A stretch of 64,000 nt of DNA. Source: Vicinamibacteria bacterium. Lineage in GTDB: Bacteria; Acidobacteriota; Vicinamibacteria; Fen-336. The DNA is taken from the NCBI GenBank assembly GCA_023701125.1, contig JAMPXO010000003.1, positions 32,391 to 96,390 on the forward strand. Reading direction: 5' to 3'. Below the pieces are notes generated by a model. The model was not told where the DNA came from, made no database searches, and saw only the letters and a list, made by a program, of their open reading frames with translations. Shown piece after piece: positions 7,236-61,315 of the stretch. The translations under genes and the position numbers were made by a program. The first letter of the stretch is position 1; each line of letters opens with the position of its first letter.

Positions 7236-7238
7236 AGC

Positions 7239-15615: not shown

Positions 15616-15642
15616 GCGGCTATAGGTTACGGCCTTTCCACG

Positions 15643-38269: not shown

Positions 38270-40266
38270 GCGGCCGGCGCCTCGCCGGCACGCTGGCCTG
38301 GGCGCTCGCCGCCGCCGTGCTGGCGGTCGCCGGCCTCGCTGCGGGGTTGCGGCAGGCGCGCCCGCTGGTGCTCGACCTGGGGCCCAACGACGCGGCGCAA
38401 CTTGCCGGCTTCCGCGAGGACTGGGAGCGCGAGGGATCGGTCGCGTTCCGCTGGACGACGCTGCGCTCGGAGGTGCGCTTCCCCTTCGCGCTCGCCGAGC
38501 CCGGGGGCCGCGTCGTACTCCGCTATCGGCGCCACTTCGACGACCCCGCTCGGGTGCGCATCGTCTCCGCGGGCGCCACGGTCGTTCAGTTCGAGGCCAG
38601 GGCCGATCGCAAGAGCCCCTACCTCGAGCTCGAGGCTCCGCTCGGCGCGACGCGCGGGCCGCTCACGCTGGTGTTCGAGTCCCACGTCACCAACGAGCGC
38701 CCGCTGGGCATCGCTCTCGACTGGGTGCGGGTCGAAGGCCGAGGCGGCTACCAGACGACGGGAAGCCTGTCCGTCGCGGTCGCCCTGCTGGCGGCAGGCA
38801 CCGTGTTGCTCGTCGCGGCCGCCGGGGCTCCGGCCCTCCCGGCCGCGGCGGCCGGATTGCTGGTTGCGGCGGCGATCGGACTGGGCGGCTGGTGGGACCC
38901 GATGGCACTGGACCGGATCGTCCAGGGCGGCCTGGCGCCGTGGCTGCTCACGGGTGCGGCTGCGGTCCTGCTGCTCCGGGCGCGGCCGTCCTCGGCCTGG
39001 CTGCGTGTCGAAGTCGCGCACCGGCCCGCGCTGCTCGCGCTGGCCCTCGTGGCGCTGGCTGTGCGGCTCGTGCTGGTGCTCCACCCCCGCTTCTACTACC
39101 CGGACGTGCGCACCCATGCGCTCTTCGCGGGACAACTCGCCCGCCACGGGCTCGAGCGCTTCTTGCAGGGCTTCACCGAGAACCAGTTCCGCTACTCGCT
39201 GGGCATCCAGCTCGAGGGCGATCACTGGTACGCGTTCCCCTACCCGCCGCTGTTCTACGTCTTCGCCCAGCCCCTGATCGGATTGTTCCGCCTCGCGCCC
39301 GAGCTCGCCGTCTCGGCGCTGCCGGCGATGGTCAACGCGCTCGAGGTGCTGCTCGTCTACGCGCTCGCCCGTCGCCTGGCGGCCGTCGCGCCGCTGCGCG
39401 CCGCGGCGCTCGTGGTGGTGCTACCGATCTTCCTGGCCCGGGCGTCGCTGGCGCTCTTCCCCGCCCTGGTCGGCCATGCCCTCGATACGTTGCTGCTGGT
39501 CTGCCTGCTCGACCTGTTCCAGGCCGCGCGCCCTCGCGTCCGCAGCGGGGTCGTGTCGGGCCTGCTGCTGGCGACGGCCTTGCTGGCGTACACACAGGGC
39601 GTCCTGAACTTCGGCCTGCTGCTGCCGCTGGTGCTGGCCTGGGATTTTTTCGCGGACCGCACGCCGACGGGCCGCGATCGGCAACGGGCTCTGCTGACCG
39701 CGGGCGTCCTCGGTGTGACGCTGGCAGCCGGGCTCTTCTACGCGCGCTACGTGCCGGTGTTCGTGGACATGCAGCGGGGCATCCCCCAGCCCGAGGAGCG
39801 CATCTGGCTGGAGTTGCAGGAGCGGCGGGCGCTGCAGGGGGACGACGATCAGCCCGAGGAGCCCAACGACCCCTACGCCGCCCCGACGTTCGAGGCCACC
39901 CGGGGGCTGGCCAAGGCGGGCTCGCGCTTGTGGATTTTCTGGGGCCCGTTCGCGCTCCTGCTACCGGTCGGGGTGGGACTACTGGCCGCGGGCGAAGCCG
40001 CGGCCAGCCGGCGCTTCCTGATCGCGTGGGCCAGCCTCTACATCGTGCTGAACTTCGCATCCGGCAGCCTGCCCGGCCCGAACCTCTTCCGCCACAGCAA
40101 GGACGTCGAGGTCGTCGCGCCGCTCTGCGCGCTCTCTCTCTCTCTCGCCGGCTCCGGGCCCCGCTCGCGCCTGGCGTGGCGCGCGGTATGGATGGCCTTC
40201 GTCGTCTACGCAGCCTGGCGAGTCGTCGAGATCTACGGGCGCATCACACCCGCTCCGTTGCCCTAG
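38266..40266 (+). CDS. large polytopic membrane protein (putative GT-C glycosyltransferase / DUF2723-like)
   Basis: GTG at 38266 (GTGA overlap). An N-terminal extracytoplasmic domain of about 180 aa is followed by at least 12 hydrophobic helices ('FPYPPLFYVF'). Confidence 0.5.
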   Translation: MSGRRLAGTLAWALAAAVLAVAGLAAGLRQARPLVLDLGPNDAAQLAGFREDWEREGSVAFRWTTLRSEVRFPFALAEPGGRVVLRYRRHFDDPARVRIVSAGATVVQFEARADRKSPYLELEAPLGATRGPLTLVFESHVTNERPLGIALDWVRVEGRGGYQTTGSLSVAVALLAAGTVLLVAAAGAPALPAAAAGLLVAAAIGLGGWWDPMALDRIVQGGLAPWLLTGAAAVLLLRARPSSAWLRVEVAHRPALLALALVALAVRLVLVLHPRFYYPDVRTHALFAGQLARHGLERFLQGFTENQFRYSLGIQLEGDHWYAFPYPPLFYVFAQPLIGLFRLAPELAVSALPAMVNALEVLLVYALARRLAAVAPLRAAALVVVLPIFLARASLALFPALVGHALDTLLLVCLLDLFQAARPRVRSGVVSGLLLATALLAYTQGVLNFGLLLPLVLAWDFFADRTPTGRDRQRALLTAGVLGVTLAAGLFYARYVPVFVDMQRGIPQPEERIWLELQERRALQGDDDQPEEPNDPYAAPTFEATRGLAKAGSRLWIFWGPFALLLPVGVGLLAAGEAAASRRFLIAWASLYIVLNFASGSLPGPNLFRHSKDVEVVAPLCALSLSLAGSGPRSRLAWRAVWMAFVVYAAWRVVEIYGRITPAPLP

Positions 40267-41105
40267 TCGGCCGCCTTCTCCAGGTCCTCGAGGATGCGGC
40301 GCAGGGCCGCGATGACCTCGTCGCGGGAGACCTCGGTCTTGCGGAACTTCAGGTCGAGAGCGAAGGTCTTCTCGGCTGGCTGAAACTGGAACACGTAGTT
40401 CCGGGGCCGTCCCGGCTTCTTCGAGACCTCCTTCGCGGCCCGGCGTGCGACCTCGCGAGTGCCGCCGCCCTCCTGGATTTTTTTGATGAGGGACAGCATC
40501 TTACCCGGGTCTCCCTGCCGAACTACTTGAAGCAGGAGGGACTTCGACTGGATGTCCGCCAGGCGACACAGCTCCCGGATATCGGCCGGCATCGAGGTCA
40601 GCGACAGCATCTCGGTGACGGAGGTCCGGCTCTTGCCCAGCCGCTCGGCCATCAGCTCGTGCGTGTAGCCGTAGCTCTCGGCCAGTTGCTTGAGACCGTC
40701 TGCCTCCTCGAAGGCGCTCAGGTCCTTGCGCTGGAGGTTCTCGATCAGCGCGATCTCGGTGACCTCGGCGTCCGAGCACTCCCGGATCACACAGGGCACC
40801 TCGTCGAGTTCGGCCTCGCGAGCCGCGCGAAAGCGCCGCTCACCCGCGATGATCTGGTAGCGCCCGCCTTGGGGCCGAACCAGGATCGGCTCCAGCACGC
40901 CCTTCTCGCGGACCGAAGCGACCAGTTCAGCCAGGTCTCCGATCTCGCGCCGGGGCTGATCCGGGTTCGGGTCGATCTGGTCGAGCGCGATCAGGCGGCC
41001 GATCGGCTCGCCCGGAGTCCGTCCGAGTTGCTCGACGAAGTGCGTGTCGTGGCGCATGCGGAGCGAACCCGGCAGCCCGAAACGGCGCGCGGCGGTGTTA
41101 GACAC
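40263..41105 (-). CDS. parB: chromosome partitioning protein ParB (Spo0J)
   Basis: The GTG start overlaps the parA end by about 8 nt. 'RRFGLPGSL' N-terminus, ParB box 'GERRFRAA' and a helix-turn-helix. The N-terminal 52 codons of ORF 40263..41261 are an artefact. Confidence 0.8.
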   Translation of the reverse strand: MSNTAARRFGLPGSLRMRHDTHFVEQLGRTPGEPIGRLIALDQIDPNPDQPRREIGDLAELVASVREKGVLEPILVRPQGGRYQIIAGERRFRAAREAELDEVPCVIRECSDAEVTEIALIENLQRKDLSAFEEADGLKQLAESYGYTHELMAERLGKSRTSVTEMLSLTSMPADIRELCRLADIQSKSLLLQVVRQGDPGKMLSLIKKIQEGGGTREVARRAAKEVSKKPGRPRNYVFQFQPAEKTFALDLKFRKTEVSRDEVIAALRRILEDLEKAAD

Positions 41106-41859
41106 GTTCGATGACCTCCTCGCAGAGCCGGTAGTACTCGAAGGCGCCGCTGGACTGGGGTGCGAAGGTGAAGATGGACTCCTTGTGCGCCGGGCTCTCC
41201 TCGAGGCGAATGCTCTTGGAGATCGTCGTCTGGAACACACGGTCGCCGAACACGTCGGCAACCGCCTTCTGGACGTCCCGAGCCAGCGTCGTACGCTTGT
41301 CGTAGAGCGTGATCACCGCTCCCAGCAGCTTGAGCTGCGGGTTGGGCCGCGAGCGGATCTTCTCCACCGTCTCGAGCAGGTCGTCGGTGCCTTCGAGCGC
41401 GAAGTAGGACGACTGCACGGGAACCAGCAGATGAGTCGCGGCCACGAGCGCGTTGACCGTGATCAGGCCCAGGGCCGGCGGGGTGTCGATCACAGCGAAG
41501 TCGAACTCGTCCGCCACCGCCGCCATCCGGTCCTTCAGGCGGAAGTGACCGTCGATCTCCCCGACCAGCTTGGCCTCGACCTTGGCAAGCGCGATGCGCG
41601 AAGGCGCGACGAACAGGTTGTCCACCGATGTCGGCCGGATGATGTCCTTGAGTTCGCTGTCCCCGGACAACACGTCGTACATCGATCGCTCCAGGGACCG
41701 GACATCCAGATAAGAGATCGACGAATTGGCCTGGGGATCGAGGTCGATCAGCAGGGTCCGTTTGCCCCTCATCGCCAGGGCTGCCGCGAGGTTGATCGCG
41801 GTCGTGGTTTTGCCGACGCCGCCCTTCTGATTCGCGATCGCAATGATCGTCAAAGACAC
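41098..41859 (-). CDS. parA: chromosome partitioning ATPase ParA (Soj)
   Basis: Deviant Walker A 'IANQKGGVGKTTT'. Start taken as GTG at 41859 ('VSLTIIAIAN') with GAGG just upstream. The ORF-table TTG at 41919 coincides with a -35-like hexamer. Confidence 0.8.
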   Translation of the reverse strand: MSLTIIAIANQKGGVGKTTTAINLAAALAMRGKRTLLIDLDPQANSSISYLDVRSLERSMYDVLSGDSELKDIIRPTSVDNLFVAPSRIALAKVEAKLVGEIDGHFRLKDRMAAVADEFDFAVIDTPPALGLITVNALVAATHLLVPVQSSYFALEGTDDLLETVEKIRSRPNPQLKLLGAVITLYDKRTTLARDVQKAVADVFGDRVFQTTISKSIRLEESPAHKESIFTFAPQSSGAFEYYRLCEEVIERV

Positions 41860-41888
41860 CTCGTCAAGGCTGGAGAACGTGCAGGAGC

Positions 41889-41919
41889 GGATCGTAGGGG
41901 ACTCGATCCGTGGGGTCAA
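41889..41919 (-). promoter_or_regulatory. sigma-70-like promoter for parAB
   Basis: The minus strand reads 'TTGACC', a 17-nt spacer, then 'TACGAT'. Confidence 0.35.
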
Positions 41920-41934
41920 GGGGAGAAGGCACCC

Positions 41935-42426
41935 TTACATCTTGTATTTTCCGAGATCCTCGTCCGAGAGGCCCTCAAGCCACCTCTGGAGCCGCTCGAC
42001 GTCCGCCGAACGAGGTGAGGACTCCTCGGTCGGCACCTCGGGAGCCTCGATCACGTGGTCCTCGACGAAGATCGGCGCCCCGGCTCGGAGGGCCAGGGCG
42101 ATCGCGTCCGACGGGCGGGAGTCGACGAGAACCCGCCCTGCCGGGGTGTCGAGGTGGATCGAGGCGTAAAAGGTGTTCTCACGCAGGTCGCAGACGACCA
42201 CTCGCGCCACTGCACCCCGCAGGTTCTCGATCACGCTCCGCAGGAGGTCGTGGGTCATCGGACGAGGCGTCTGCACGTTTTCGATCTGGAGCGCGATGGC
42301 GTTGGCCTCGAAGACGCCAACCCAAATCGGGAGCATCCGGTCCCCGCCCGGCTCACGGAGGACCACGATCGGCATGCTCGTGATCGGGTCGATCATCAGC
42401 CCCCGGATCGTCATCTCGACCAACAA
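41935..42426 (-). CDS. bifunctional nuclease (BFN/DUF151) family protein
   Basis: 163-aa ORF. Pattern 'GVFEANAIALQIE...RPMTHDLL' as in DUF151. Confidence 0.65.
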   Translation of the reverse strand: MLVEMTIRGLMIDPITSMPIVVLREPGGDRMLPIWVGVFEANAIALQIENVQTPRPMTHDLLRSVIENLRGAVARVVVCDLRENTFYASIHLDTPAGRVLVDSRPSDAIALALRAGAPIFVEDHVIEAPEVPTEESSPRSADVERLQRWLEGLSDEDLGKYKM

Positions 42427-45795: not shown

Positions 45796-46530
45796 GTGAT
45801 CACCCTGCTTTTTTCCACGCTGTTGGCCCAGGCGGGCGGGACCGCATTTTCCGGAGGCGTGTTCGGACTGATCCGCGACAGCGGCCCGGTCGCGATCGCC
45901 GTCCTGTTCACGCTCCTCGTGTTCTCCTTCGTCTCGTGGGCGATCATCGTCTACAAGGGCCTCGCGTTGCGTCAAGCGTACCAGCACTCCGAGACGTTCC
46001 TGGAGATCTTCCGGAAGAGCTCCAAGTTCTCCGAGGTGCACTCCGTCTGCGTCCAGCTCAAGGCGAGCCCGCTGGTCGGTGTCTTCCAGGCCGGCTACCA
46101 GGAGGTCAACCAGCAGGTGCGCGCCGGCCAGCAACCGGCCGCAGCCGCTGCCGCGCGCCCGGTCGTGAAGAGCCTGGAGTCCCTCACCCGTGCGCTGGTC
46201 CGCGCCGCCACCGCCGAGTCCACCCGCCTCGAGCGACGGCTGAGTTTCCTCGCGACCACTGCCGCCGTGTGTCCGTTCGTCGGCCTTTTCGGCACCACGT
46301 GGGGCATCATGAACGCCTTCCAGGAGATCGGCTCGCAGGGATCGGCCAACCTGGCCGTCGTCGCGCCGGGCATCTCCGAGGCGCTGATCACGACGGCGAC
46401 CGGCCTGGCCGCGGCGATCCCCGCGGCCGTCTTCTACAACTACTTCGCCAGCCGCGTGCGGGTGCTGACCGCGATGGTCGACGACTTCGCGCTCGAGTTC
46501 CTCAACATCGTCGAGCGGAACTTCACTTAA
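45796..46530 (+). CDS. tolQ: Tol-Pal system protein TolQ (MotA/ExbB family)
   Basis: GTG start, three transmembrane segments, 'GLFGTTWGIMNAF'. Confidence 0.8.
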   Translation: MITLLFSTLLAQAGGTAFSGGVFGLIRDSGPVAIAVLFTLLVFSFVSWAIIVYKGLALRQAYQHSETFLEIFRKSSKFSEVHSVCVQLKASPLVGVFQAGYQEVNQQVRAGQQPAAAAAARPVVKSLESLTRALVRAATAESTRLERRLSFLATTAAVCPFVGLFGTTWGIMNAFQEIGSQGSANLAVVAPGISEALITTATGLAAAIPAAVFYNYFASRVRVLTAMVDDFALEFLNIVERNFT

Positions 46531-46531
46531 G

Positions 46532-47002
46532 GTGGCGATCGGGACGGGCGGCGGAGGCGGCGGACGCGCGAGCGCGCTGTACTCCGGGTTCCGCTCCAAG
46601 CGCGGCCTGCAGCAGATGGGCGAGATCAACATCACACCGCTGGTCGACGTGGTGCTGGTGCTGCTGCTCGTCTTCATGGTGACAGCGCCGATGATGAGCC
46701 GCGGCATCGACGTGTCGCTGCCGGTGGCGGGCCTCAAGGACCCGCAACCCGAGGACCGGCTGACGGTCTCGGTCAATGCCGAGGGCCGCGTCTACCTCGG
46801 CGACCGGCCGATCGCTCTCGAACTGCTCGAGGACGAGTTGCGGGGCCGCCTGCAGGGCGTCGGCCAGCGCATTGCCTACCTGCGGGCCGACGAGCGCATC
46901 GCCTACGGCCGGGTGATCGCGGTCGTCGACCGAATGAAGAGGGCAGGCGTCGAAAACATCGGGTTCGTCTACGAGCTTCCCGAGGAGAAGGCCGCGCGTT
47001 GA
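46532..47002 (+). CDS. tolR: Tol-Pal system protein TolR (ExbD family)
   Basis: 'EINITPLVDVVLVLLLVFM'. An alternative ATG start lies at 46613. Confidence 0.8.
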   Translation: MAIGTGGGGGGRASALYSGFRSKRGLQQMGEINITPLVDVVLVLLLVFMVTAPMMSRGIDVSLPVAGLKDPQPEDRLTVSVNAEGRVYLGDRPIALELLEDELRGRLQGVGQRIAYLRADERIAYGRVIAVVDRMKRAGVENIGFVYELPEEKAAR

Positions 47003-47805
47003 AGGATGCCGTCGATAGCGTGATCGCCGAGCGCGAACGGCTCGACCGGGGCTTCCCGGCCGGGCTCGTGATGTCGCTGGCCGGTCACCTGCTGATCGCG
47101 GGGGCCGCGTTCGCGCTGCCGATCCTGATGCCGGCCAAGCCGAAGCTGCAGGTCTCGATCGGCATCGCCATCCCGATCCCGCGTGGGGGCGGCGGCAGCC
47201 CGACGGCCGGCTCGCCCGACGGCGGCGCCGCACAGCAGCCCCCGGTCACCCAGGCCCCGGAGCCGGAACCGCCCAAGCCCGAGCCTGTCAAGGTCGTGAA
47301 GCCCCCGAAGGAAGCCGAGCGCAAGGGCCTGCCCGACCCGAAGGCGGACAAGAAGAAGGCGAAGGCGAAGAAGCCCGAGCCCGCGCGGCCGTCCAGCACC
47401 ACGTCCGCGAAGTCCACCGCGAGCAAGAAACCGGCCGGCACCGGGGCGCAGAGCACGACCGCCTCCAGCGCGACCCCGGGGGTGGGACTCGGTCCGGTCG
47501 GACCCGGGCTGCCTGGCGGCACGACCTCGACCGGCGACTGGTACCTTGCGGCCGTCCAGCAGAAGATCTGGATGATCTGGAATCAGCAGCTCCGGACCGG
47601 CACGTATCCGCCGGTGACTGTTCGCTTCACCATCCTCGGCGACGGCCAGGTCACCGACGTCGCCATCGTCCAGTCGAGCGGGCAATACCTGCTCGACCAG
47701 GCGGCCCAGCGGGCCGTGCTCACCGCCGGGCCATTCTCGCCGCTGCCCAGGAGCTATGACACCAAGGCCTTCACACTCCAGGCCGTCTTCCAGCCGGTCG
47801 GTTAG
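46999..47805 (+). CDS. tolA: TolA-like / TonB-C-terminal-domain energy-transducer protein
   Basis: TTG start (TTGA overlap). Transmembrane anchor, Pro/Lys-rich spacer 'PEPEPPKPEP', and a C-terminal TonB-like domain. Confidence 0.65.
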   Translation: MKDAVDSVIAERERLDRGFPAGLVMSLAGHLLIAGAAFALPILMPAKPKLQVSIGIAIPIPRGGGGSPTAGSPDGGAAQQPPVTQAPEPEPPKPEPVKVVKPPKEAERKGLPDPKADKKKAKAKKPEPARPSSTTSAKSTASKKPAGTGAQSTTASSATPGVGLGPVGPGLPGGTTSTGDWYLAAVQQKIWMIWNQQLRTGTYPPVTVRFTILGDGQVTDVAIVQSSGQYLLDQAAQRAVLTAGPFSPLPRSYDTKAFTLQAVFQPVG

Positions 47806-49141
47806 CCTCGGCGCCGCCGTCGCGGCGCTGGTGCTCGTACTGACGGGCCGAGAGGCGACGCCTGTCCTTGCGGCGCCCCAGGCCCCGCCTCCCGACACCC
47901 AGATCGTGATCACGAGCGGGACCCAGGGTCCGCGGCTGGCGATCGCCGACTGCGCGCCGCGGCGCGAGGACCCCGCCCTGCGCGCGGCGTGCGGCACCAT
48001 CTCCCAGGTGCTCCGCGCCGACCTGCGCTTCGAGGGACTGTTCCAGTTCGTGCCCGACAGCCTGCTGCGCGCGATCCCGCCGCTCAACCCCGAGTCCCCC
48101 AACATGGAGGACTGGAAGTCGATCGGCGCCGGGGTGCTGGTCGTGACCCGCGTCGACGGCACCGCAGCCGAGCTCGGCGTCGACCTGCGCGTCTACTTCG
48201 TGGAGAACGGCCAGGTGATGCTGGCCAAGCGCTACGCCGGCCCGGCCAGGAACCCGCGCGTGTTCGCCCACCAGGCCTCGGACGACATCGTGCTGCTGAC
48301 CCAGAACCGGGGGGTCGCCCGCACCAAGATCGCCTTTTCCTCCGACCGCGACGCGACCAAGGAGCGCCGCGCGAAGGAGATCTACATCATGGATTACGAC
48401 GGGTTCAACCCGCGCCGGGTCACGGTCAACAACTCGCTGAACATCCTGCCGAACTGGACGCCGGACGCCACCGGGCTCGCCTACGTCTCCTACCGCCAGG
48501 GCCGGCCGCTGGTCTTCCTGTCGCGGATCTACGCGGGGACCAACACCCCGAACCTGACCGGCGAGAAAGAGTCGAGCCAGGCCTTCGCCCCGTCCTTCAG
48601 CCCGGACGGATCGCGCATCGCCTGGGCCAGCAACCGCAGCGGCAACATGGAGGTGTGGGTTGCCAACGCCGACGGCTCCGGGGCCCACGCGGTGACCCAG
48701 AGCGCGGCCTCGGACACGGCCCCGACCTGGAGCCCCACCGGCCGCGAGATCGCCTTCACCTCGAACCGCGGCGGCACGCCCCAGATCTACGTGATGGACG
48801 CCGAGGGCCTGAACGTGCGCCGGCTCTCGACGGTCGGCAATTACAACGACGCCCCGTCGTGGAACCCGAACAAGCAGTTCCTCGAGGTCGCCTACACCTC
48901 TCGGCTGGAGGGCCAGTTCCAGATCGCGATCGTCGACATCGCCAGCGGCCAGGTCCGTCAGATCACCGAGAACCGCGGCTCGTGCGAGTACCCGACCTGG
49001 GCGCCCTCGGGTCGGCACCTCGCGTTCTCGTGCCAGCGCGGCGCGACGTGGCAGATCCACGTCGCGGACCGCGAGGGGCGCATCGTGCAACCGCTCCAGG
49101 CCGGGCCGGGCAGCAACGTCCAGCCCGACTGGAGCAATTGA
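47756..49141 (+). CDS. tolB: Tol-Pal system beta-propeller protein TolB
   Basis: Signal peptide, TolB N-terminal domain, and repeated 'SPDG...IAF/YVS' propeller blades. The ORF-table start overlaps tolA by 50 nt. Confidence 0.85.
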   Translation: MTPRPSHSRPSSSRSVSLGAAVAALVLVLTGREATPVLAAPQAPPPDTQIVITSGTQGPRLAIADCAPRREDPALRAACGTISQVLRADLRFEGLFQFVPDSLLRAIPPLNPESPNMEDWKSIGAGVLVVTRVDGTAAELGVDLRVYFVENGQVMLAKRYAGPARNPRVFAHQASDDIVLLTQNRGVARTKIAFSSDRDATKERRAKEIYIMDYDGFNPRRVTVNNSLNILPNWTPDATGLAYVSYRQGRPLVFLSRIYAGTNTPNLTGEKESSQAFAPSFSPDGSRIAWASNRSGNMEVWVANADGSGAHAVTQSAASDTAPTWSPTGREIAFTSNRGGTPQIYVMDAEGLNVRRLSTVGNYNDAPSWNPNKQFLEVAYTSRLEGQFQIAIVDIASGQVRQITENRGSCEYPTWAPSGRHLAFSCQRGATWQIHVADREGRIVQPLQAGPGSNVQPDWSN

Positions 49142-49155
49142 GGAGCGAACCCGAG

Positions 49156-49731
49156 ATGCACGCCCGACGTCTGAACCTGCTCGCGGCCGTGGTGCTGGCC
49201 GTCTTCGCCCTGGCCTGCGGCGGCGGCAAGCGCCCGTCCGCGCTCACCCAGCCCCCGCCCCCGCCCCCGCCCGGCACCGGCTCCACGTACGGCGGCCCGC
49301 GGCCGCAGCCCGTCGATGCCGGTCCCGACGTGGTGCCGCTCGACGGCGAGGGCGTGGCCGCTTCCGATTTCGAGGAGTCGCGCGCCGACGGCGAAGGCGG
49401 GCCGCTGGCCGACGTGCTGTTCGGCTACGACCAGGCCAACCTGTCGGACGAGGGCCGCGCGCTCGTGGAGCGTCACGCGGTCTGGCTCCAGGCCCGTCGC
49501 GAGGCCAAGATCATCATCGAGGGCCACTGCGACGAGCGCGGCACCGTGGAGTACAACCTCGCCCTCGGCGAGTTGCGGGCCAGGGCCGTCCGCGACCTGC
49601 TGGTCAGCCTCGGCGTCGACGGGGCGCGGCTGAACGTCGTCTCCTACGGCAAGGAGCGGCCCCTCGACGGCGGCTCGGGCGAGGCGTCCTGGGCCCGGAA
49701 CCGGCGCGCGCACTTCGTCGTCCGCCGCTGA
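49156..49731 (+). CDS. pal: peptidoglycan-associated lipoprotein Pal (OmpA family)
   Basis: Lipobox 'FALAC', poly-Pro linker, and the OmpA-like 'FGYDQANLSDEGRALV...NRRAHFVV'. AGGAG lies 10 nt upstream of the ATG. Confidence 0.85.
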   Translation: MHARRLNLLAAVVLAVFALACGGGKRPSALTQPPPPPPPGTGSTYGGPRPQPVDAGPDVVPLDGEGVAASDFEESRADGEGGPLADVLFGYDQANLSDEGRALVERHAVWLQARREAKIIIEGHCDERGTVEYNLALGELRARAVRDLLVSLGVDGARLNVVSYGKERPLDGGSGEASWARNRRAHFVVRR

Positions 49732-49834
49732 CGGTCACCACGACTTTCGCGCCGGGCGCGGTCCTCCCGCGGTCTGGCGATTGTCTACCATGCGCCGCAT
49801 GACGGTTGCGGCGCGCTCGATCGAGGAGGTCCCC

Positions 49835-52889: not shown

Positions 52890-54094
52890 GCCAGGCGGAG
52901 CGCGAGGTCGTGATCGTGGGTGGCGGCCCGGCCGGTGCCGCCGCGGCGCTGTTCCTGCGGCAGCAGGGCGTCGACGTGCTGCTGCTCGAAGCCGCCCGTT
53001 TTCCCCGCGACAAGATCTGCGGCGAGGGCGTGTCGCCCGAGGCCTGGCGGCTGTTGCGAGCGATGGGGGCCGCAGAGGACGTCGCCCGACTCGCGCCGCG
53101 GCCGCTGCGCGGCATGCGCGTGATCGCGCCCGACGGAACGGTCTTCGAGGGCGTCTACCGGCGCGGCGGCGAGACGCTGACCGGGTTCGCGGTGCGCCGG
53201 ACGCGCCTCGACGCCACCCTGCTCGACGCCGCCCGCCGCGCGGGAGCGGAAGTCCGCGAGGGCGCCCGGGTTGCCGAGGCCGTTCGGTCCGCTGGCGGCG
53301 TCACCGGCGTCCGGATGCAGGACGGCGAATCGATCCGGGCCCGCTTCGTGCTCGGCTGCGACGGCCGCTGGGGGGCCTGCGCGCGGGCCGTGGGCGGCCT
53401 GCGCGGATCCCGCTTCTTCCGGCGCTTCGCGTTGCGCCTTCACCTCGAAGGCGTGGCGGGCCTTGGCTCCGTCGGCGAAATGCACGTGGGCCGCGGCGGG
53501 TACTGCGGCATCGCCCCGCTCTCGGACACGTCGGCCAACGTGGCCTTCGTGCTGGACGCTTCCGCCTTCGCCGCCGCGGCCGGCCGGCTCGAGGACTTCG
53601 CCCGCGAGACGCTCGCGCAGCGCTTCCCCGCGGTCGCGGCCCGCTGTCGCGACGCCAAGTGGCTGGGACCGCCGCGCGCCATCGGGCCGCTCGCGGTCTC
53701 GGTCCCCCGCCGCGCCCTGCCCGGCCTCCTGCTCCTGGGGGACGCCGCAGGCTTCTACGATCCCTTCACCGGCGAAGGCGTGACCCTCGCCCTGCGCAGC
53801 GCCGAACTCGCCGTCGGGCCCGTGGTCGACGCCCTGCACGGCCGCGTGTCGTCTGCGGCTGCCGCCGCGCGCTACGAGCGCGAGTATGCTGGCGCCACTC
53901 GCGACAAGTTCCGCCTCAACCGCCTGCTGCAGTGGGTCGTGGCCTGGCCGGCGGTCGCCAACGCGGTCGCCCGCCGCTTGCGCGCGCGCCCGCGCACGTG
54001 CGACGAACTGGTCGGCATCGCCGGCGATTTCGTGCCGGCGCGGCGCGCCCTGGGCCCCCGCTTCCTGCTCCAGTTGCTCCAGCCCGGCGCCTGA
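52886..54094 (+). CDS. FAD-dependent oxidoreductase (geranylgeranyl-reductase / SrsC-like flavoprotein)
   Basis: GTGA overlap with the methyltransferase stop. '[14 protein letters not shown]' and '[14 protein letters not shown]'. Confidence 0.75.
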
Positions 54095-54183
54095 CGGCGG
54101 GCCCGAAACCGGGGGGCGGCTCCGCGGGGGGTGCAGTAGAATTCCTTTTTCTCGGCAGCCTGCCGTTCCCGGAGGTAATTCGC

Positions 54184-56298
54184 GTGGCCACGACCGCCCT
54201 CAGCCAGGAGACCGGACTCGACCGCCAGACTCTGGTGGGGATCTACCGGACGATGTACCAGTCGCGCCGGGTCGACGACAAGGAGATCCAGCTCAAGCGC
54301 CAGAACAAGATCTTCTTCCAGATCAGCGGCGCGGGCCACGAAGCGGTGCTGGCGGCGGCGGGCCTCGTGCTCAAGCCCAACCACGACTGGTTCTACGCGT
54401 ACTACCGCGACCGCGCGCTGATGCTGGCGCTGGGCATGACGCCGCTGGAGATGCTGCTCTCCGCGACCGGCGCCGCGGACGACCCGAACTCCGGCGGCCG
54501 CCAGATGCCCTCGCACTGGGGTCACGCGGGCCTCAACATCGTCACCAAGTCTTCGCCCACCGGCACCCAGTTCCTGCAGGCGGTCGGCTGCGCGGAGGCC
54601 GGCATCTACGCTGCCGCCCAGGAGGGAGCCGGCACGAAGCTCGGGCTGCCCTTCCGCTCGGACGAAATCGTGTACGTCTCGACCGGCGACGGCACGACGT
54701 CCGAGGGCGAGTTCTGGGAGAGCCTCAACACCGCCTGCAATCGCAAGCTGCCCGTCCTCTACCTGGTCGAAGACAACGGCTACGCGATCTCGGTCCCGGT
54801 CGAGGTCCAGACGGCCGGTGGCAGCATCTCGAAGCTGGTCTCTTCCTTCCCCAACCTGCTGGTGCGCGAGGTGGACGGTTGCGACCCGCTGGCGAGCCTC
54901 GGCACCCTGCGCGAGGCGGCGACCTGGTGTCGCGAGCGACGCGGGCCTGCGCTCGTCCACGCCAAGGTGATCCGGCCGTACTCGCACTCGTTGTCCGATG
55001 ACGAGGCCCTGTACCGCCCCGGCCACGAGCGCGAGGCCGACGCGGCGCGCGACCCGCTGGTCTCCTGGCCGGCCTTCCTGCTACGCGAGGGACACGCGAC
55101 CGAGGCCGAACTGGAGGCGCTGCGCGCCGAGGTCGACCGCGAGGTGGCCGAGGCCGGCGATCTCGCCTGTGCCGCGCCCCAGCCCGAGCCGGCTTCAGCC
55201 CTGCTCCACGTCTACTCGCCCGAGGTCGACCCGACCTCGAAGGCGTTCGACACCGAGCCGGCCTTCGCGGGCGATCCCAAGACCGTCGTCGACCTGCTCA
55301 ACGCCTGCCTGCACGAGGAGATGGCTCGCGACCCGCGGGTCGTCGTCTTCGGCCAGGACGTCGCCGACTGCAGCCGCGAGGACAACCTGCCCCACGTCAA
55401 GGGCAAGGGCGGCGTGTTCAAGGTCACCCACAACCTGCAGCGGCGCTTCGGCGGTGAGCGCGTGTTCAACTCGCCGCTGGCCGAGGCCAACATCGTCGGC
55501 CGCGCGATCGGCATGGCCACCCGCGGGCTGAAGCCGGTGGTCGAGATCCAGTTCTTCGACTACATCTGGCCCGCGTACATGCAGATGCGCAACGAGCTGG
55601 CGCTGATCCGCTGGCGCTCGAACGGGGCGTTCAAGTGTCCCGCCGTCGTGCGCGTGACCTACGGCGGCTACCTCCAGGGCGGCGCCGTCTATCACTCCCA
55701 GTGCGGTGAGGTGCTGTTCACCCACATCCCCGGCCTGCGGGTCGTGCTGCCGTCGAACGCCGAGGATGCGAACGGCTTGCTGCGCACCGCGATCCGCTGC
55801 GACGACCCCGTGCTCTTCCTCGAGCACAAGCACCTGTACCGTCAGACCTACAACAAGGGCCGCAACCCCGGCCCCGACTACTGCATCCCGTTCGCCAAGG
55901 CGCGCACGGCGCGGCCCGGCAAGGACCTGACGATCGTCACCTTCGGCGCGCTCGTGCAGCGCAGCCTGGTGGCCGCCAAGCAGGTGGCCGAGAGCGACGG
56001 CATCGAGGCCGAGGTGATCGACCTGCGCACGCTGTCGCCCTACGACTGGGACGCGATCGCGGAGAGCGTGAAGCGCACTGGCAAGGTGATCGTGGCCCAG
56101 GAGGACCAGATCTCCTGGGGCTACACCGCGGAGATCGCGGCCCGCATCTCGGACGAGCTGTTCGAGTGGCTGGACGCCCCGGTCAAGCGCATCGGCGCCA
56201 CCGACACCTTCGTCGGCTACGCGCCGTCGCTCGAGGACTTCATCCTGCCCCAGATCCCGGGCATCGCCGCGGAGATCCGCAAGCTCGCCCGCTATTAG
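54184..56298 (+). CDS. fused alpha/beta E1 component of a 2-oxoacid dehydrogenase (thiamine-diphosphate dependent)
   Basis: GTG at 54184 with GGAGG 8 nt upstream. ThDP motif '[10 protein letters not shown]...NN' in the alpha half and a transketolase-like beta half. No E2 or E3 gene is adjacent. Confidence 0.8.
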
Positions 56299-56305
56299 GA
56301 CTAGG

Positions 56306-56559
56306 TGGGGGTGCGGGGGCGGAGGAGCGTCCGTTCGCGCCGTAGCCCCCGCGGGACCGGCGACGGGTTCACCCCGGCGCTGGAACCCTATGGGGGTGCG
56401 GGGGCGGAGGAGCGTCCGTTCGCGACGTAGCCCCCGCGGGACCGGCGACGGGTTCACCCCGGCGGTGGAACCCTATGGGGGTGCGGGGGCGGAGAGCGTC
56501 CGTTCGCGCCGTAGCCCCCGCGGGACCGGCGACGGGTTCACCCCGGCGCCGGAACCCTA
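56306..56559 (+). repeat. three tandem copies of a structured GC-rich repeat of about 85 bp
   Basis: Units at 56306-56390, 56391-56475 and 56476-56559 are nearly identical. Each has inverted repeats 'gcgggggc...gcccccgc' and 'gggttc...gaaccc'. They fill the gap between the convergent E1 and cupin genes. Confidence 0.8.
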
Positions 56560-56928
56560 TGGCTTGCTCGTGCCGGCTCGGCCGTAGCGGTCTTCGAGGC
56601 GGACGACGTCGTCCACCTCGGGCGTCGAGACCTCGAGGATGTCCGTGTCCTCGAGTCCGGTCATGCGGTGCAGGGTGCCGGGCGTGATGTGGTAGCTCTC
56701 GCCCGGGGCCATCTCGACCCGGCGCAGCTCGCCCGGCTCGTCCTTGCCCTTGACCTCGAACAGCAGCTTTCCGCTCTGGATCAGGATCGTCTCGTCCTTG
56801 ACCTCGTGGTACTGGAGGGACAGGCTCTCGCCCTTCTTCACGTGCAGCAGCTTGCCCACGTAGCGCTCGGTGCGCGCCCACCAGACCTCGTGCCCCCAGG
56901 GCTTTTCGACCCGCTTGTGCTCGGTCAC
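56557..56928 (-). CDS. cupin-domain protein
   Basis: 'GESLSLQYHEVKDETILIQSG' cupin_2 motif. Its stop codon lies inside the last repeat unit. Confidence 0.65.
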   Translation of the reverse strand: MTEHKRVEKPWGHEVWWARTERYVGKLLHVKKGESLSLQYHEVKDETILIQSGKLLFEVKGKDEPGELRRVEMAPGESYHITPGTLHRMTGLEDTDILEVSTPEVDDVVRLEDRYGRAGTSKP

Positions 56929-56931
56929 GTC

Positions 56932-58671
56932 TCAGGACTCCCCGGCGTCGGCCGCGGCCAACGCCTCGTGCAGTTCCGTTCTCAGGTGCGATTCGACCGC
57001 AGCCGCGGACGACAGCCGCAGGGCGCGCAGCGTGGCCTCTCGCACGTGCGCCAGGTCCGCGGCCCGCAGGACCTGCTTGACGCGCGGGATCGCCGTCGGG
57101 CTCATCGACAGCTCGCGCGCGCCAAGGCCGGCCAGCACCAGCGATTGTAGCGGGTCGCCCGCCATCTCCCCGCAGACGCCGACCGGGCGGCCGGCGGCCC
57201 GCGCCTGGTCGAAGGCCGTGACGAGCAGCGCCAGCACCGCGGGGTGCAGTGGCTCGTAGAGGCTCGCCACCCGCGGGTCGGCGCGGTCCACGGCGAGCAG
57301 GTACTGGATCAGGTCGTTGGTGCCGATGCTGAAGAAATCCGCCGCCGGGGCGAGCTGGCCGAGCGTCAGCGCGGCGCTCGGGATCTCGATCATCACGCCG
57401 ACCGGCAGCTCGGCCGCGTACACCCGGCCCTCGGACTCCAGCTCCTGCGCCGTCTCCGCCAGGAACGCCCGCACCTCCGCGAGGTCGGACGCCCCGCGCA
57501 GGAACGGGAACAGGATGCGCAGCGGCCCGTGCACGGCAGCCCGCAGCAGCGCCCGCAGTTGCGGCCGGAAGGCGCCGGGGGCGCGGCTGAGCATGCGCAG
57601 TGCGCGCGGCCCGAGCGCCGGGTTGGGGCTCGAAGGTCCGCCCGGTGCGATGTCCTCGGGCCCCAGGTCCCAGACCCGGACCGTGACCGGGTGCGGGTGC
57701 ATCTGGTCCAGCAGGCGCCGGTACAACTCGTACTGACGCTCCTCGTCGAGGCTGCCGCGCCCGAGCAGGTACTCGCTGCGGAACAGGCCGATGCCCTCCG
57801 CGCCGTACTGCATTGCGGTCGCCGCTTCTTCGGCGAACTCCGCGTTGGCGAGCAGCGCGACGCGCACGCCGTCGCGCGAGGCCGCGGGCTCGCCGCGGGT
57901 CGACTGCAGGCTGATCTCGCGCCGCTGCTGGCGCTCGCGCAGCGCGCGAAAGCCCGCCACCACCGGTTCGGACGGCTCCACGACGAGGCGGCCCTGGGTG
58001 CCGTCGAGCACGACCAGCGCCCCGGGCGGAACCCGCTGGGTCGCGTCGCGCAGCCCGGCGACGGCCGGGATGCCACGCGAGCGGGCGAGGATCGCCGTGT
58101 GGTAGGTGCGCGAGCCGCCATCGAGGGCGATCCCCATCACCTTCGCCCAGTCCAGCTCGGCGGCCTCGGACGGGGTCAGGTCCTGGGCCACCAGCACCAC
58201 CGGCCCCGGCAGCCGCGCCAGCGACGGCCCGTCGGCGGCCCCGGCCAGGTTGAGCAGCACGCGCCCGAGCACGTCGTCGAGGTCGCTGCTGCGCTCCTTC
58301 AGGTACTCGTCTGTGAAGCCGTCGAACAACGCGTGCAACTGCTCGGAGACCTGGCGCAGGGCCCACTCGGCGTTGACGTGGTCCTGGCGCACGATGCCCG
58401 CGGCGCGATCGCGCAGCAGCGGATCCTCGAGCATCAGCAACTGGGCGTCGAAGATGTAGGCGTGGAGCGCGCCGACTTCGCGCGACAGCCGGGCCTTGAT
58501 CGCCTCGAGCTGCTTGCGCGACGCGGCGACGGCCCGCAGCAGCCGCTGCACCTCGCGCTCGACGGCATCCGGCGCGAGCAGCAGCCGGAACACCGGCACC
58601 CGCTCGCGCTCCATGACCAGCGCCTGGCCGACGGCGATTCCCGGCGAGACGCCGTTGCCGGTCAGCTCCAC
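56932..58671 (-). CDS. ptsI: phosphoenolpyruvate-protein phosphotransferase (PTS enzyme I)
   Basis: 'GGSRTYHTAILARSRGIP' (active-site His) and the PEP-utilizing 'IGTNDLIQY'. Confidence 0.9.
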   Translation of the reverse strand: MELTGNGVSPGIAVGQALVMERERVPVFRLLLAPDAVEREVQRLLRAVAASRKQLEAIKARLSREVGALHAYIFDAQLLMLEDPLLRDRAAGIVRQDHVNAEWALRQVSEQLHALFDGFTDEYLKERSSDLDDVLGRVLLNLAGAADGPSLARLPGPVVLVAQDLTPSEAAELDWAKVMGIALDGGSRTYHTAILARSRGIPAVAGLRDATQRVPPGALVVLDGTQGRLVVEPSEPVVAGFRALRERQQRREISLQSTRGEPAASRDGVRVALLANAEFAEEAATAMQYGAEGIGLFRSEYLLGRGSLDEERQYELYRRLLDQMHPHPVTVRVWDLGPEDIAPGGPSSPNPALGPRALRMLSRAPGAFRPQLRALLRAAVHGPLRILFPFLRGASDLAEVRAFLAETAQELESEGRVYAAELPVGVMIEIPSAALTLGQLAPAADFFSIGTNDLIQYLLAVDRADPRVASLYEPLHPAVLALLVTAFDQARAAGRPVGVCGEMAGDPLQSLVLAGLGARELSMSPTAIPRVKQVLRAADLAHVREATLRALRLSSAAAVESHLRTELHEALAAADAGES

Positions 58672-58984: not shown

Positions 58985-59379
58985 GCCTTGCGCGGCTCCA
59001 GCAGTTCCGACGCCACGTGGATGGCCGCCTGGCCGTACTCGCGGATCGCCCGCGCGACGACCTTGAGCTCGCCGTCGCGCAGGCTGGAGAGCTTGATCAG
59101 CATCGGCAGGTTGACGCCGGTGACGATCTCGACGGTCGGCCCCATCGAGGGCAGCGCCAGGTTGGTGGGCGTGCCGCCGAACATGTCCGTCAGCACCAGC
59201 GCGCCCTCGGCGCCGACATCTGCGATCGCCTTCTCCACGGCCTCGCGGGCCGCCACGGGGTCGTCGCTCCAGCCGATCGAGACCGCGGCCGAGAGCGGAA
59301 GCTCGCCCACGATCTGGGTGGCCGCCGCCACCAGCTCGGAGGCCAGCCCGCCGTGGGTCACGACCACGATCCCGATCAC
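58981..59379 (-). CDS. PTS EIIA component, mannose/fructose family
   Basis: GTG at 59379 (GAGG upstream; GTGA overlap with the rapZ stop). 'IGIVVVTHGGLASEL'. Confidence 0.7.
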   Translation of the reverse strand: MIGIVVVTHGGLASELVAAATQIVGELPLSAAVSIGWSDDPVAAREAVEKAIADVGAEGALVLTDMFGGTPTNLALPSMGPTVEIVTGVNLPMLIKLSSLRDGELKVVARAIREYGQAAIHVASELLEPRKA

Positions 59380-60248
59380 GACAGCCTCGCGTCGCGATGG
59401 CGGACCTGGACGCCGTAGCGGCCCTTGCGAAGGGCCTCGCCGATGCGGGTCGCCAGCATCACCGAGCGGTGGCGGCCGCCGGTGCAACCGACTGCGATCG
59501 TCACGTAGCTCCTCCCTTCCTTGCGGTGCCGAGGCAGCACGAACGCCAGCAGCCCCATCACCTTGCGCAGGAACCGCGCCGTGTCCGGCTGGGCGTCGAG
59601 GAAGCGCTGCACGGGGGCCTGCTCGCCTGTCAGCCGCCGCAGCCGCGGCACGAAGTTGGGGTTGGGCAGGAAGCGGGCGTCGAACACCAGGTCCGCCTCG
59701 GCCGGCACCCCGTACTTGTAGCCGAACGAGGTGACGGTGACCATCATCGGCGCGTCCGCCGTGCGGGCGCCGAAGCGCTCCCGCACCCAGGCCCGCAACT
59801 CGTGGACCGTGAATGCCGAGGTGTCGACGATGCGGTCGGCGGTCTTGCGGATCGGCCGCAGCGCCTCGCGCTCCTGGCGCAGTCCCTCGACCACCGGCTC
59901 GTCCACCGCCAGCGGGTGCGGCCGCCGGGTTTCGCTGAAGCGGCGAACGAGGGTGCGCTCGTCGGCCTCCAGGAACAGCAGCTCGACCGGCAGCCCGCGC
60001 TGGCGCAGGCTGCGCAGCGCCGTCGGGAACTGGCGGGTGAAGGCGGGCTCGCGCAGGTCCACCACCAGCGCCGCCCTGCGCAGGCTGGGCGTGTCGCGGA
60101 TCAGCTCCGCGAAACGGGGGATCAGGGCGGTCGGCAGGTTGTCGACGCAGAAGAAGCCGAGGTCCTCCAGTGCGCGCAGGACGTGCGTCTTGCCGGAGCC
60201 CGAGAGCCCGGTCACGATCACCAGCTTGTCGGTCTGCTCGGCCTTCAT
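59376..60248 (-). CDS. rapZ: RNase adapter protein RapZ (YhbJ)
   Basis: 'MKAEQTDKLVIVTGLSGSGKT' P-loop. The C-terminal 'VTIAVGCTGGRHRS' is the RapZ hallmark. It is the in-frame C-terminal part of ORF 59376..62363. Confidence 0.85.
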   Translation of the reverse strand: MKAEQTDKLVIVTGLSGSGKTHVLRALEDLGFFCVDNLPTALIPRFAELIRDTPSLRRAALVVDLREPAFTRQFPTALRSLRQRGLPVELLFLEADERTLVRRFSETRRPHPLAVDEPVVEGLRQEREALRPIRKTADRIVDTSAFTVHELRAWVRERFGARTADAPMMVTVTSFGYKYGVPAEADLVFDARFLPNPNFVPRLRRLTGEQAPVQRFLDAQPDTARFLRKVMGLLAFVLPRHRKEGRSYVTIAVGCTGGRHRSVMLATRIGEALRKGRYGVQVRHRDARLS

Positions 60249-61315
60249 GCCCGCCCCCGCGCCGCCTTCCGCCGTGTGGGGGCTTGGGGGCGGAGGAGCT
60301 CCGTTCGCGACGTAGCCCCCATGGGACCGGCGACGGGCTCCGCCCGGCGTCGGAACCCGTCGGCCGCTGGCCCGGCGATGATCGCCTCCAGTCGGTGGGC
60401 GAAGCGCTGCGCGCCGTCGAGGCCCCGCTCCTTGAGCAGGTGGTTGCGAGCCGCCACCTCGATCAGGATCGCCAGACTGCGGCCGGGCGCCACCGGCATC
60501 CGCAGCCGCGGCACGTCGACGCCCAGCACGTCGACGCTCTCCTGCTGGAGCCCGAGACGGTCGTACTCCTTGCCCGGCTCCCAGCGCTCGAGGTCCACCA
60601 CCAGCTCCACGCGCTGGCTGACCCGCAGCGACGAGACGCCGTACAGGTCGCGGATGTTGATCACGCCGAGGCCGCGCAGCTCCATGTGGTCGCGCAGCAG
60701 CAGCGGCGAGGTGCCGACCAGGGTGTCGCCGATGCGCTTGACCTCCACGACGTCGTCCGCGACCAGCCCGTGGCCGCGGTCGACGAGGTCGAGCGCGCAC
60801 TCCGACTTGCCGATGCCGCTCTCGCCGCTGATCAGCACGCCGAGGCCGAAGACGTCGACCAGCACGCCGTGCAACTGCGCCCGGCGCGCGAGCTGCTCGT
60901 CGAGGTACGCCGTCAGCCGCTTGATGAACGGCGTCGACTCCAGCGGCGTCACCAGCAGCGGCACGCCGCGGCTGTCGGCCGCCTGGACCAGCTCGCGTGG
61001 CGGCGGCAGGCCCTTGGTGACGACGAAGCAGGTCACGTCGCAGGCCGCCAGCCGGGCCAGCAGTCGCCGGCGGGCCACGGCCGACAGCTTCTGGAGGTAG
61101 GTCGACTCGCTGACGCCGAGGATCTGGACGCGACCGTAACGCAGGTACTCGAAGTAGCCGGACAGCGCCAGCCCGGGCCGCTGTACGCGCGACTGCAGGA
61201 TGGCGCGGGCGAGGCCGGTGCGGCCGGCCACCAGCCGCAGCTTCAGCTCCGCTCGCCGCTCCCGCAGCAGGCGGCGGACGCTGACGGCGGGCTCCGGTGC
61301 CGCCTTCCCCGCCAC
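60245..61315 (-). CDS. hprK: HPr kinase/phosphorylase, with a C-terminal extension of about 35 aa contributed by the repeat
   Basis: GTG start directly after the rpoN TAG. P-loop 'GESGIGKSE'. The ORF runs through the repeat and ends with 'GRA*', overlapping the rapZ ATG (ATGA). Confidence 0.85.
   Translation of the reverse strand: MAGKAAPEPAVSVRRLLRERRAELKLRLVAGRTGLARAILQSRVQRPGLALSGYFEYLRYGRVQILGVSESTYLQKLSAVARRRLLARLAACDVTCFVVTKGLPPPRELVQAADSRGVPLLVTPLESTPFIKRLTAYLDEQLARRAQLHGVLVDVFGLGVLISGESGIGKSECALDLVDRGHGLVADDVVEVKRIGDTLVGTSPLLLRDHMELRGLGVINIRDLYGVSSLRVSQRVELVVDLERWEPGKEYDRLGLQQESVDVLGVDVPRLRMPVAPGRSLAILIEVAARNHLLKERGLDGAQRFAHRLEAIIAGPAADGFRRRAEPVAGPMGATSRTELLRPQAPTRRKAARGRA
60277..60358 (+). 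repeat. fourth, diverged copy of the same 85-bp repeat, embedded in the 3' end of hprK
   Basis: 'tgggggcttgggggcggaggagctccgttcgcgacgtagcccccatgggaccggcgacgggctccgcccggcgtcggaaccc' aligns with the 56306 units. A c:g to t:a change in the first stem is compensatory. Confidence 0.7.

Follow-up and report, generated by a model that had tools for sequence, protein, structure and literature searches.

The repeat described here, a three-unit array at 56306-56559, lies in a 64,000-nt stretch of a Vicinamibacteria bacterium genome (Acidobacteriota, Fen-336; contig JAMPXO010000003.1, positions 32,391 to 96,390), below called the window. It recalls several described kinds of bacterial repeat. Mycobacterial interspersed repetitive units (MIRUs) are 40-100-bp units, interspersed in the genome and arranged in head-to-tail arrays of variable number at gene junctions; they are traversed by reading frames that overlap the start and stop codons of the neighboring genes. 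To our knowledge, MIRUs are restricted to Mycobacterium, and neither a conserved structure of two hairpins nor insertion within enzyme domains is noted for them. Palindrome-associated transposable elements (PATEs), derived from IS200/IS605, have sub-terminal hairpins, no terminal inverted repeats (TIRs), no target-site duplication (TSD), a strand asymmetry and a biased 5' flank. Repetitive extragenic palindromes (REPs) form compensatory subfamilies with G·T pairs, are found within 20 bp of both of two convergent open reading frames (ORFs) and can supply TAG stops with their ends (Di Nocera et al. 2013, PMC3733652). Intragenic REP copies are known from Opitutus terrae, Thauera and Rickettsia conorii; for the Acidobacteria, the same survey gives no REP family, only tyrosine transposases flanked by TIRs (PMC3733652). 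In-frame fusions of Rickettsia palindromic elements (RPEs) are singled out as frequent in a review on miniature inverted-repeat transposable elements, or MITEs (PMC10969869).

The array is by far the strongest tandem repeat of the window, whose GC content is 71.4% (56306-56562, period 85, 3.0 copies, 96% matches, score 486; Tandem Repeats Finder, TRF). Its units, of 85, 85 and 84 nt, follow each other head to tail; four substitutions and one 1-nt deletion distinguish them. A covariance model run over the window with its filters off yields exactly five copies (72-91 bits, the next-best match reaching 16.7 bits), all on the plus strand: the three units and two single copies.

56306-56390, plus strand: tandem unit 1, 85 nt (TRF, nhmmer, cmsearch 80 bits, fold)
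56313-56320 paired with 56345-56352: hairpin 1 of unit 1, GCGGGGGC with GCCCCCGC
56357-56383: hairpin 2 of unit 1 (fold)
56391-56475, plus strand: tandem unit 2, 85 nt (TRF, nhmmer, cmsearch 90.9 bits)
56476-56559, plus strand: tandem unit 3, 84 nt, with the 1-nt deletion (TRF, cmsearch 72.2 bits)
60278-60361, plus strand: copy 4, single, 84 nt, subfamily 'CTT', variant A (nhmmer E 1e-20, cmsearch 91.5 bits)
4267-4350, plus strand: copy 5, single, 84 nt (nhmmer E 4e-15, cmsearch 83.9 bits)

A 17-base core motif matches the window five times, with 0.19 matches expected; chance similarity is therefore excluded. A preliminary description of this DNA had already recognized three near-identical head-to-tail units with few substitutions and a 1-nt indel, in agreement with TRF and with the comparison of the units. 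It had placed the array close behind the stop of an E1 gene and had seen the stop of the convergent cupin gene in the last unit: the E1 stop, a TAG, indeed ends at 56298, with 7 nt between it and the array, and 'cta' in unit 3 is the stop of the minus-strand cupin ORF. The diverged fourth copy that it reported was recovered at 60278-60361, and stem 1 does show the reported compensatory change, C:G to T:A (alignment columns 13-52), whereas its total of four copies was too low, the one at 4267-4350 having been overlooked. It was also right in setting the array apart from CRISPR, as the units abut, the period equals the unit length and there are no spacers, and from known REPs, at least at the sequence level: no Rfam family matches, and PMC3733652 lists no REP family for the Acidobacteria.

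Probably, the three-unit array is, like the two single copies, part of a family of palindromic DNA repeats that is lineage-restricted, non-autonomous and mobile (selfish). Each unit (77% GC) is composed of two different GC-rich hairpins and extends from 5'-GGGGG(Y)TTGGGGGC to CGGAACCCGWC-3'; the hprK comparison described below gives GGGGG(Y)TT to AACCCGWC. In an alignment of 37 copies, hairpin 1 reads (Y)TTGGGGGC ... GCCCCCA(W). Its tip occurs in two unrelated versions, variant A, GCGTCCGTTCGCGAC, and variant B, CCGGAGTCGTCCG, which on its own forms a tetraloop on a 4-bp stem. Hairpin 2 reads (GGGA)CCGGCGNCGGG-loop-CCCGNCGYCGG(AACCC), with GGGTTCACCCC at the tip. The second stem first proposed, gggttc with gaaccc, is not the conserved pairing: the covariation supports CCGGCGNCGGG with CCCGNCGYCGG. 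Upstream of the element, the six adjacent bases are biased to CCCG[G/T][C/T], and G never occurs at -1. This bias mirrors the element's own 3' end, CCCGWC, followed by GG, and may stem from a target preference, from copying mediated by microhomology or from the remnants of tandem partners.

The fold is conserved across the family. Standard pairs fill 90.4% of the pair cells in the 37 copies, a share that falls to 39-50% once the 3' partners are slid. Changes on both sides are present at seven base pairs (29 cells), five of them in hairpin 2, and none of 500 shuffles scored as high. Examples of such pairs are UA/CG at columns 13-52, GC/GU/AU at 62-82, CG/GC at 65-79, GC/AU/CG/UA at 67-77 and GC/AU at 69-75, and RNAalifold yields the same helices. 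Mismatches in the two helices are asymmetric, with 18 G·T and no A·C; the plus-strand fold is the more stable one in 37/37 copies (means of -53.4 vs. -46.9 kcal/mol). Given the slid controls and the multi-state pairs, it can safely be concluded from the aligned copies that the fold of one particular strand is conserved. Selection on the secondary structure, previously proposed from a single compensatory change, thus has a firmer basis in seven pairs with compensatory changes among 37 copies.

The mobility of the family is indicated by sites that are filled in one genome and empty in another. The genes concerned in the window are the following:

53998-56298, plus strand: fused alpha/beta E1 dehydrogenase gene (E1_dh + Transket_pyr + Transketolase_C; Pfam, synteny with ACD2 locus L112); start codon uncertain, the ORF being open from 53659
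56557-56928, minus strand: cupin / mannose-6-phosphate-isomerase-like gene, convergent with E1 (Pfam, ACD2 comparison)
59376-60248, minus strand: rapZ, its ATG overlapped by the TGA stop of hprK
60245-61315, minus strand: hprK (HPr kinase/phosphorylase), 356 aa (translation, ACD2 comparison)
3262-4362, plus strand: PHP-type (CehA/McbA family) metallohydrolase gene, its 3' end passing through copy 5 (homologue alignment)
~49150-49733, plus strand: pal/ompA-type lipoprotein gene, after the tolQ-tolR-tolA-tolB cluster (45796-49141)

Contig WYBL01000082 (L112) of 'Acidobacteria bacterium ACD2' is syntenic with the window: the genes are ordered rpoN, hprK, rapZ, EIIA-Man, HPr, ptsI and cupin, and the last of these is convergent with E1. 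The cupin and E1 genes overlap there by 4 nt, at CTAG, with no repeat. The covariance model detects no copy over L112, and the E1/cupin and hprK/rapZ sites are both empty. In the window, exactly this junction of convergent stops holds ~260 nt (the array and GACTAGG). Instead of being intergenic, copy 4 lies in the 3' end of hprK: it inserts 28 codons in frame into the C-terminal tail, and its minus-strand translation is DGFRRRAEPVAGPMGATSRTELLRPQAP. The tail in the window, AGPAA[DGFRRRAEPVAGPMGATSRTELLRPQAP]TRRKAARGRA up to the stop, compares with AAGAGKARATSARGRR in ACD2: 15 residues on each side, plus exactly 28 codons. HprK accordingly counts 356 aa in the window vs. 329 aa in ACD2, and the 4-nt ATGA overlap with rapZ is kept. 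In the public annotation of the window's metagenome-assembled genome (MAG), HprK is deposited at 356 aa (P0001), 28 residues of which are repeat-encoded.

Copy 5 is located at the junction of the PHP metallohydrolase gene with a convergent HD-domain gene. The homologues of this protein all end 2-5 residues past AWTQPVFV; in the window, as in a JGI protein with 99% identity, the chain extends further by ~30 element-encoded residues (GGLGAEELRSRLSPHGTGAGLRPVSE...). In a syntenic Logan contig (L115, 88% identity), the PHP/HD junction is empty, with a 14-nt spacer. The PHP orthologue P0123 (L114) carries a degenerate in-frame copy at an internal loop (1185-1273, plus strand, 15.9 bits) and, at the 3' end of its gene, a copy on the opposite strand (1965-2055, minus strand, 42 bits), at the same junction as copy 5. 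With this 3' copy on the opposite strand and another copy inside, the PHP gene has thus been struck independently at least three times across the lineages. In the AlphaFold model of P0123, whose mean predicted local distance difference test score (pLDDT) is 88, the insert has a pLDDT of 46-69 and lies between two confident strands. Exactly where P0123 has the full element, P0122 (L115, ~6006-6091) has the six residues 'GLGAEP' (covariance-model score 10.7 bits), which may be the in-frame deletion remnant of an old copy. The opposite situation is found at pal/ompA: the ACD2 gene (L057, 1186-1826) has a reverse-oriented copy 8 nt past its stop, and the window pal has none. These reciprocal filled and empty sites show that copies were gained or lost since the related Vicinamibacteria lineages diverged.

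Around 9-10 of roughly 31 distinct loci (~30%) are intragenic. On both sides of many copies, the coding signal of the GC content at third codon positions (GC3) keeps the same frame. Intragenic copies occur in both orientations and in four reading frames; a preference for two of the six frames (8/11 intragenic copies) is not significant after exclusion of the frames that contain stops. The units inside genes are seen only at lengths divisible by three and add a loop of 28-29 residues rich in Gly, Pro, Arg and Asp. The most common encoded peptides are GGLGAEELRSRRSPHGTGDGLRPASEPV in the plus orientation and DGFRRR.EP.AGPMGA.S...LLRPQ.P in the minus orientation. The canonical length of variant A is 84 nt (range 83-85 nt) and that of variant B is 87 nt, found in 22/22 of its copies. 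All four intragenic variant-A copies measure 84 nt. Among the other variant-A copies, 8/11 are not multiples of three (seven of 83 or 85 nt and one truncated to 76 nt), including the two 85-nt units of the window. Such lengths fit a selection filter that would retain multiples of three inside genes.

Structural alignments locate two of the insertions within known folds. An AMP-binding acyl-CoA synthetase (L093) aligns to PDB entry 8weu on both sides of its insert (query 3-98 to chain 247-341, query 119-273 to chain 333-486), which places the 28-codon (84-nt) unit inside the PGExGE turn. A D-2-hydroxyacid dehydrogenase (L109) likewise aligns to 6bii on both sides, the insert lying within the NAD domain. 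The reading frames of L109 and of L027, below, were chosen by the GC3 coding signal. Other interrupted genes are:

L100: BNR/sortilin propeller protein with an insert (Pfam and coding signal on both sides; the PDB alignment does not span the insert)
L053: U5-methyltransferase with an insert (Pfam and coding signal on both sides; the PDB alignment does not span the insert)
L086: DEAD helicase, insert between the DEAD and Helicase_C domains
L101: multihaem cytochrome, insert between haem-binding CxxCH motifs
L027: HIT-PLD protein, insert in a linker

The number of units can also differ at one and the same site: the linker of a PUFA/PKS-type (polyunsaturated fatty acid/polyketide) synthase holds 4 x 87 nt (4 x 29 aa) in L029 vs. 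1 x 87 nt in the orthologous L098. In L027, three copies (minus, plus, minus) are present within 1.2 kb (6190-7365), in or beside one HIT-PLD-helicase-like ORF. The reading frame of this ORF degenerates after the second copy, which may point to a pseudogene or an assembly error.

The family was searched for with a loose pattern in one-genome-per-species contigs, with a stricter pattern in a metagenome collection, and with nhmmer and cmsearch. The loose 17-base pattern hit at least 81 loci, mostly chance matches; among the loci listed, the real ones cluster in contigs of two MAGs, ACD2 ('Acidobacteria bacterium ACD2', WYBL01) and ACD1 ('Vicinamibacteria bacterium ACD1', JAMQGV01). An ACD2 locus has a four-unit array of period 87. 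In the metagenome collection, the stricter pattern gave 28 loci, nearly all in the JAANMT-JAANMY assemblies. With the window included, at least 52 hits represent at least 41 distinct copies in 35 arrays, well beyond the four copies first counted. No flanking DNA is common to the window and the loci that carry these other copies. A protein annotated from a 'Vicinamibacteria bacterium' MAG matches the HprK of the window at 100% identity, and the window accordingly represents a further, related organism. No copies were found in the viral contigs and plasmids searched, and Rfam returned no match at its gathering thresholds (the best permissive one is Pxr, with 14.5 bits vs. a threshold of 80). The family is apparently restricted to Vicinamibacteria-group lineages, soil-type Acidobacteria. 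Origins as tRNA-like, tmRNA, CRISPR, terminator, Rfam, phage or plasmid elements were each checked and each rejected.

Compared with the described systems, the family has much in common with RPEs, as these are presented in PMC10969869 and PMC3733652 after Ogata et al. (2000). Both are short, multi-copy, hairpin-forming, non-autonomous repeats, some of them intergenic; a large fraction lies in frame in unrelated housekeeping genes, where a short hydrophilic peptide is added and the fold is not destroyed; and both are without classical TIRs or TSDs and without an assigned mobilizer. The present repeat is indeed palindromic and in frame in protein genes, with a tolerated peptide that AlphaFold predicts as a low-confidence loop in an otherwise intact fold. 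There are also differences: the host is a free-living, 71% GC Acidobacteriota and not an AT-rich obligate intracellular alpha-proteobacterium, the sequences are unrelated, the unit measures 84/87 nt vs. about 100-150 nt for RPEs, and here head-to-tail tandem arrays are formed, including in-frame ones. It is not a member of RPE-1 to RPE-10, as judged by its host, 77% GC and distribution.

With REPs and bacterial interspersed mosaic elements (BIMEs), both GTAG- and CGTC-tagged, the family shares GC-rich stem-loops, compensatory subfamilies with G·T pairs, a concentration less than 20 bp from the 3' ends of convergent or unidirectional ORFs, the supply of stops, occasional copies within genes and tandem clusters (PMC3733652). 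It also resembles them in its location and copy number, with at least 41 distinct copies, many at stops. A REP, however, consists of one palindrome of 20-40 bp whose terminal tag is unpaired, and it mostly forms inverted dimers, head-tail dimers being rare (PMC3733652), whereas the unit here combines two different hairpins in 84-87 nt, is invariably arranged head to tail and so exceeds the REP size and single-palindrome form. Motifs similar to the tags are present, though placed otherwise than in the definition: G[T/G/C]AG lies directly against the 3' arm of hairpin 1, its last G being paired, and CG[T/A]C ends the unit 5 nt past hairpin 2. The repeat is MIRU-like in that hprK reads through copy 4 while keeping its ATGA overlap with rapZ, and in its tandem number, which varies as in a variable-number tandem repeat (three units in the window array; four vs. 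one at one orthologous site); the sequences are unrelated. Like MITEs and PATEs, it is small, non-coding, multi-copy and presumably mobilized in trans. Of the features that define MITEs, TIRs are absent and no clean TSD is seen; with PATEs it shares sub-terminal hairpins, the lack of TIRs and of a clean TSD, strand asymmetry and 5' flank bias. To judge from these comparisons, the repeats resemble RPEs and REPs in their behavior and MIRUs in their arrays, and they depart from the formal definition of REPs in size and in their two hairpins and from that of MITEs in having no TIRs.

If the family is mobile, a trans-acting enzyme would recognize the folded single plus strand during mobilization. 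We infer this transposase-recognition step, in which the folded strand is read, from the hairpins, which are kept by compensatory change, and from the wobble pairs, which occur on one strand only; the array-forming step is of the same standing. The hairpins would be maintained because propagation needs the folded plus strand. The most plausible candidate for the mobilizer would be a Y1/HUH-type transposase, such as RAYT or the TnpA of IS200/IS605. Tandem arrays would arise by slippage or by unequal recombination between units. Insertion would be tolerated at gene ends and, provided that the length is divisible by three, within genes. Effects on mRNA 3' ends (stabilization, insulation of convergent transcripts) would then be a by-product and not the reason for the family.

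Several points weigh against a mobile repeat family. TIRs are absent: the GGGGGYTT and AACCCGWC ends do not mirror each other as inverted repeats, and a short CCGWCGG-like palindrome is all that recurs at the junctions. The sole signal in the flanks is the CCCG bias on the 5' side. GAC/GAC matches on either side were found in 4/4 cases of the target duplication check, yet most copies are without an exact duplication and there is no clean TSD. Among the ~55 Pfam-annotated window ORFs, there is no transposase, integrase or reverse transcriptase, and the available data link no TnpA/Y1 gene to the element. Because the copies share ancestry, the shuffle statistics (0/500) overstate their independence. 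Essentially two lineages supply the data, that of the window's MAG and the ACD1/ACD2 group, and every sequence is a MAG or a metagenome contig; the tandem copy number may be wrong in short-read assemblies. Finally, in unidirectional intergenic contexts, eight loci are in sense and two in antisense orientation; this excess is not significant (two-sided binomial ~0.11), but it hints at some filtering at the RNA level.

Copies are seen a few nt from stop codons, between genes that converge or run in the same direction, and within genes. Many begin 6-40 nt past a stop codon or overlap or supply the stop, as the window array does; ~30% of the loci are inside ORFs. A host-selected RNA element acting at 3' ends, as a U-tract-independent terminator, a barrier to 3' exonucleases or an insulator of convergent genes, would agree with these positions, with the very stable structures (about -53 kcal/mol per unit), with the confinement of wobble pairs to the plus strand and with the 8:2 sense excess; the same roles have been proposed for REPs and BIMEs (PMC3733652). 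It is nevertheless unlikely. A scan of 55800-57100 gave no terminator-like site, and no T-tract follows the hairpins; the copies within ORFs have both orientations, three loci lie between divergent genes, the sense excess is within chance, and the same junctions work in relatives without the repeat, with stops that overlap by 4 nt. The preliminary description had considered a function of this sort, as an RNA element, a terminator or stabilizer, or a cruciform site, and each fails to explain the in-frame intragenic copies, the missing T-tract and the empty orthologous sites. If, instead, each unit or array were a small regulatory RNA (sRNA) gene with its own transcript, the covarying structure and the strand-specific asymmetry would be explained, but the scan around the array shows no promoter-like sites, no Rfam family matches, copies sit in frame within coding sequences, and no single-stranded 'seed' is conserved, the unpaired parts being variable or replaced. 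This makes sRNA genes highly improbable.

A role at the DNA level, in which a nucleoid or topology protein would bind the repeat or its cruciform (as gyrase or IHF at BIMEs) and the host would keep it for chromosome organization, is very unlikely as well. The GC-rich inverted repeat, the single orientation of the five window copies and the GC skew, uniformly slightly negative across the window with no sign switch, are in its favor. The G·T-only asymmetry, on the contrary, favors a single-stranded form over a duplex or cruciform, the three L027 copies are of mixed orientation within 1.2 kb, and presence/absence polymorphism at orthologous sites speaks against a fixed host function. Regarding a bias toward one replication strand, nothing is concluded, with only three loci in the window and the mixed orientations of L027. 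That the family is an artefact of assembly, or a chance likeness of low-complexity sequences at 71% genomic GC, has a negligible probability, even if short-read MAGs are involved and tandem repeats are prone to assembly errors: the family is present with distinct flanks in independent assemblies (NCBI MAGs, JAANM* metagenomes and Logan contigs), point changes separate the units, and the core motif count far exceeds expectation.

For the mobile repeat family, a new mode of mobilization can be imagined, although it is rather doubtful: a plus-strand single-stranded DNA or RNA intermediate would be read via the two covarying hairpins and integrated next to CCCG-rich sequence without TIR or TSD, in an 84/87-nt form fit for coding sequence. 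If so, the repeat would be a generator of disordered protein loops and linkers, by way of in-frame arrays, in a free-living, high-GC phylum. Selfish palindromic repeats of this intragenic type have mainly been described in Rickettsia and in a few other genomes, and the present host is a free-living and very GC-rich member of the Acidobacteriota. The comparative evidence is unusually clean, with filled and empty sites, a one- vs. four-unit in-frame array and independent strikes on one protein family. The family could therefore serve as a tractable system for element movement, for hairpin conservation and for the rate at which new protein loops are created. Annotators of these MAGs should regard C-terminal 'extensions' (that of the 356-aa HprK is one) and the 3' ends of genes as partly repeat-derived; for RNA work, structured and covarying intergenic repeats should not be taken for sRNA genes by default.

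Elsewhere in the window, four sizeable ORFs (319, 204, 472 and 666 aa; 14656-17672 on the minus strand and 38266-40266 on the plus strand) have a strong coding signal and no Pfam match at E <= 1e-5. The minus strand of 40263-42426 encodes parB, parA and a protein with a bifunctional-nuclease domain; the GC content is 65% there vs. 71-73% elsewhere. The window may lie near the chromosomal origin.

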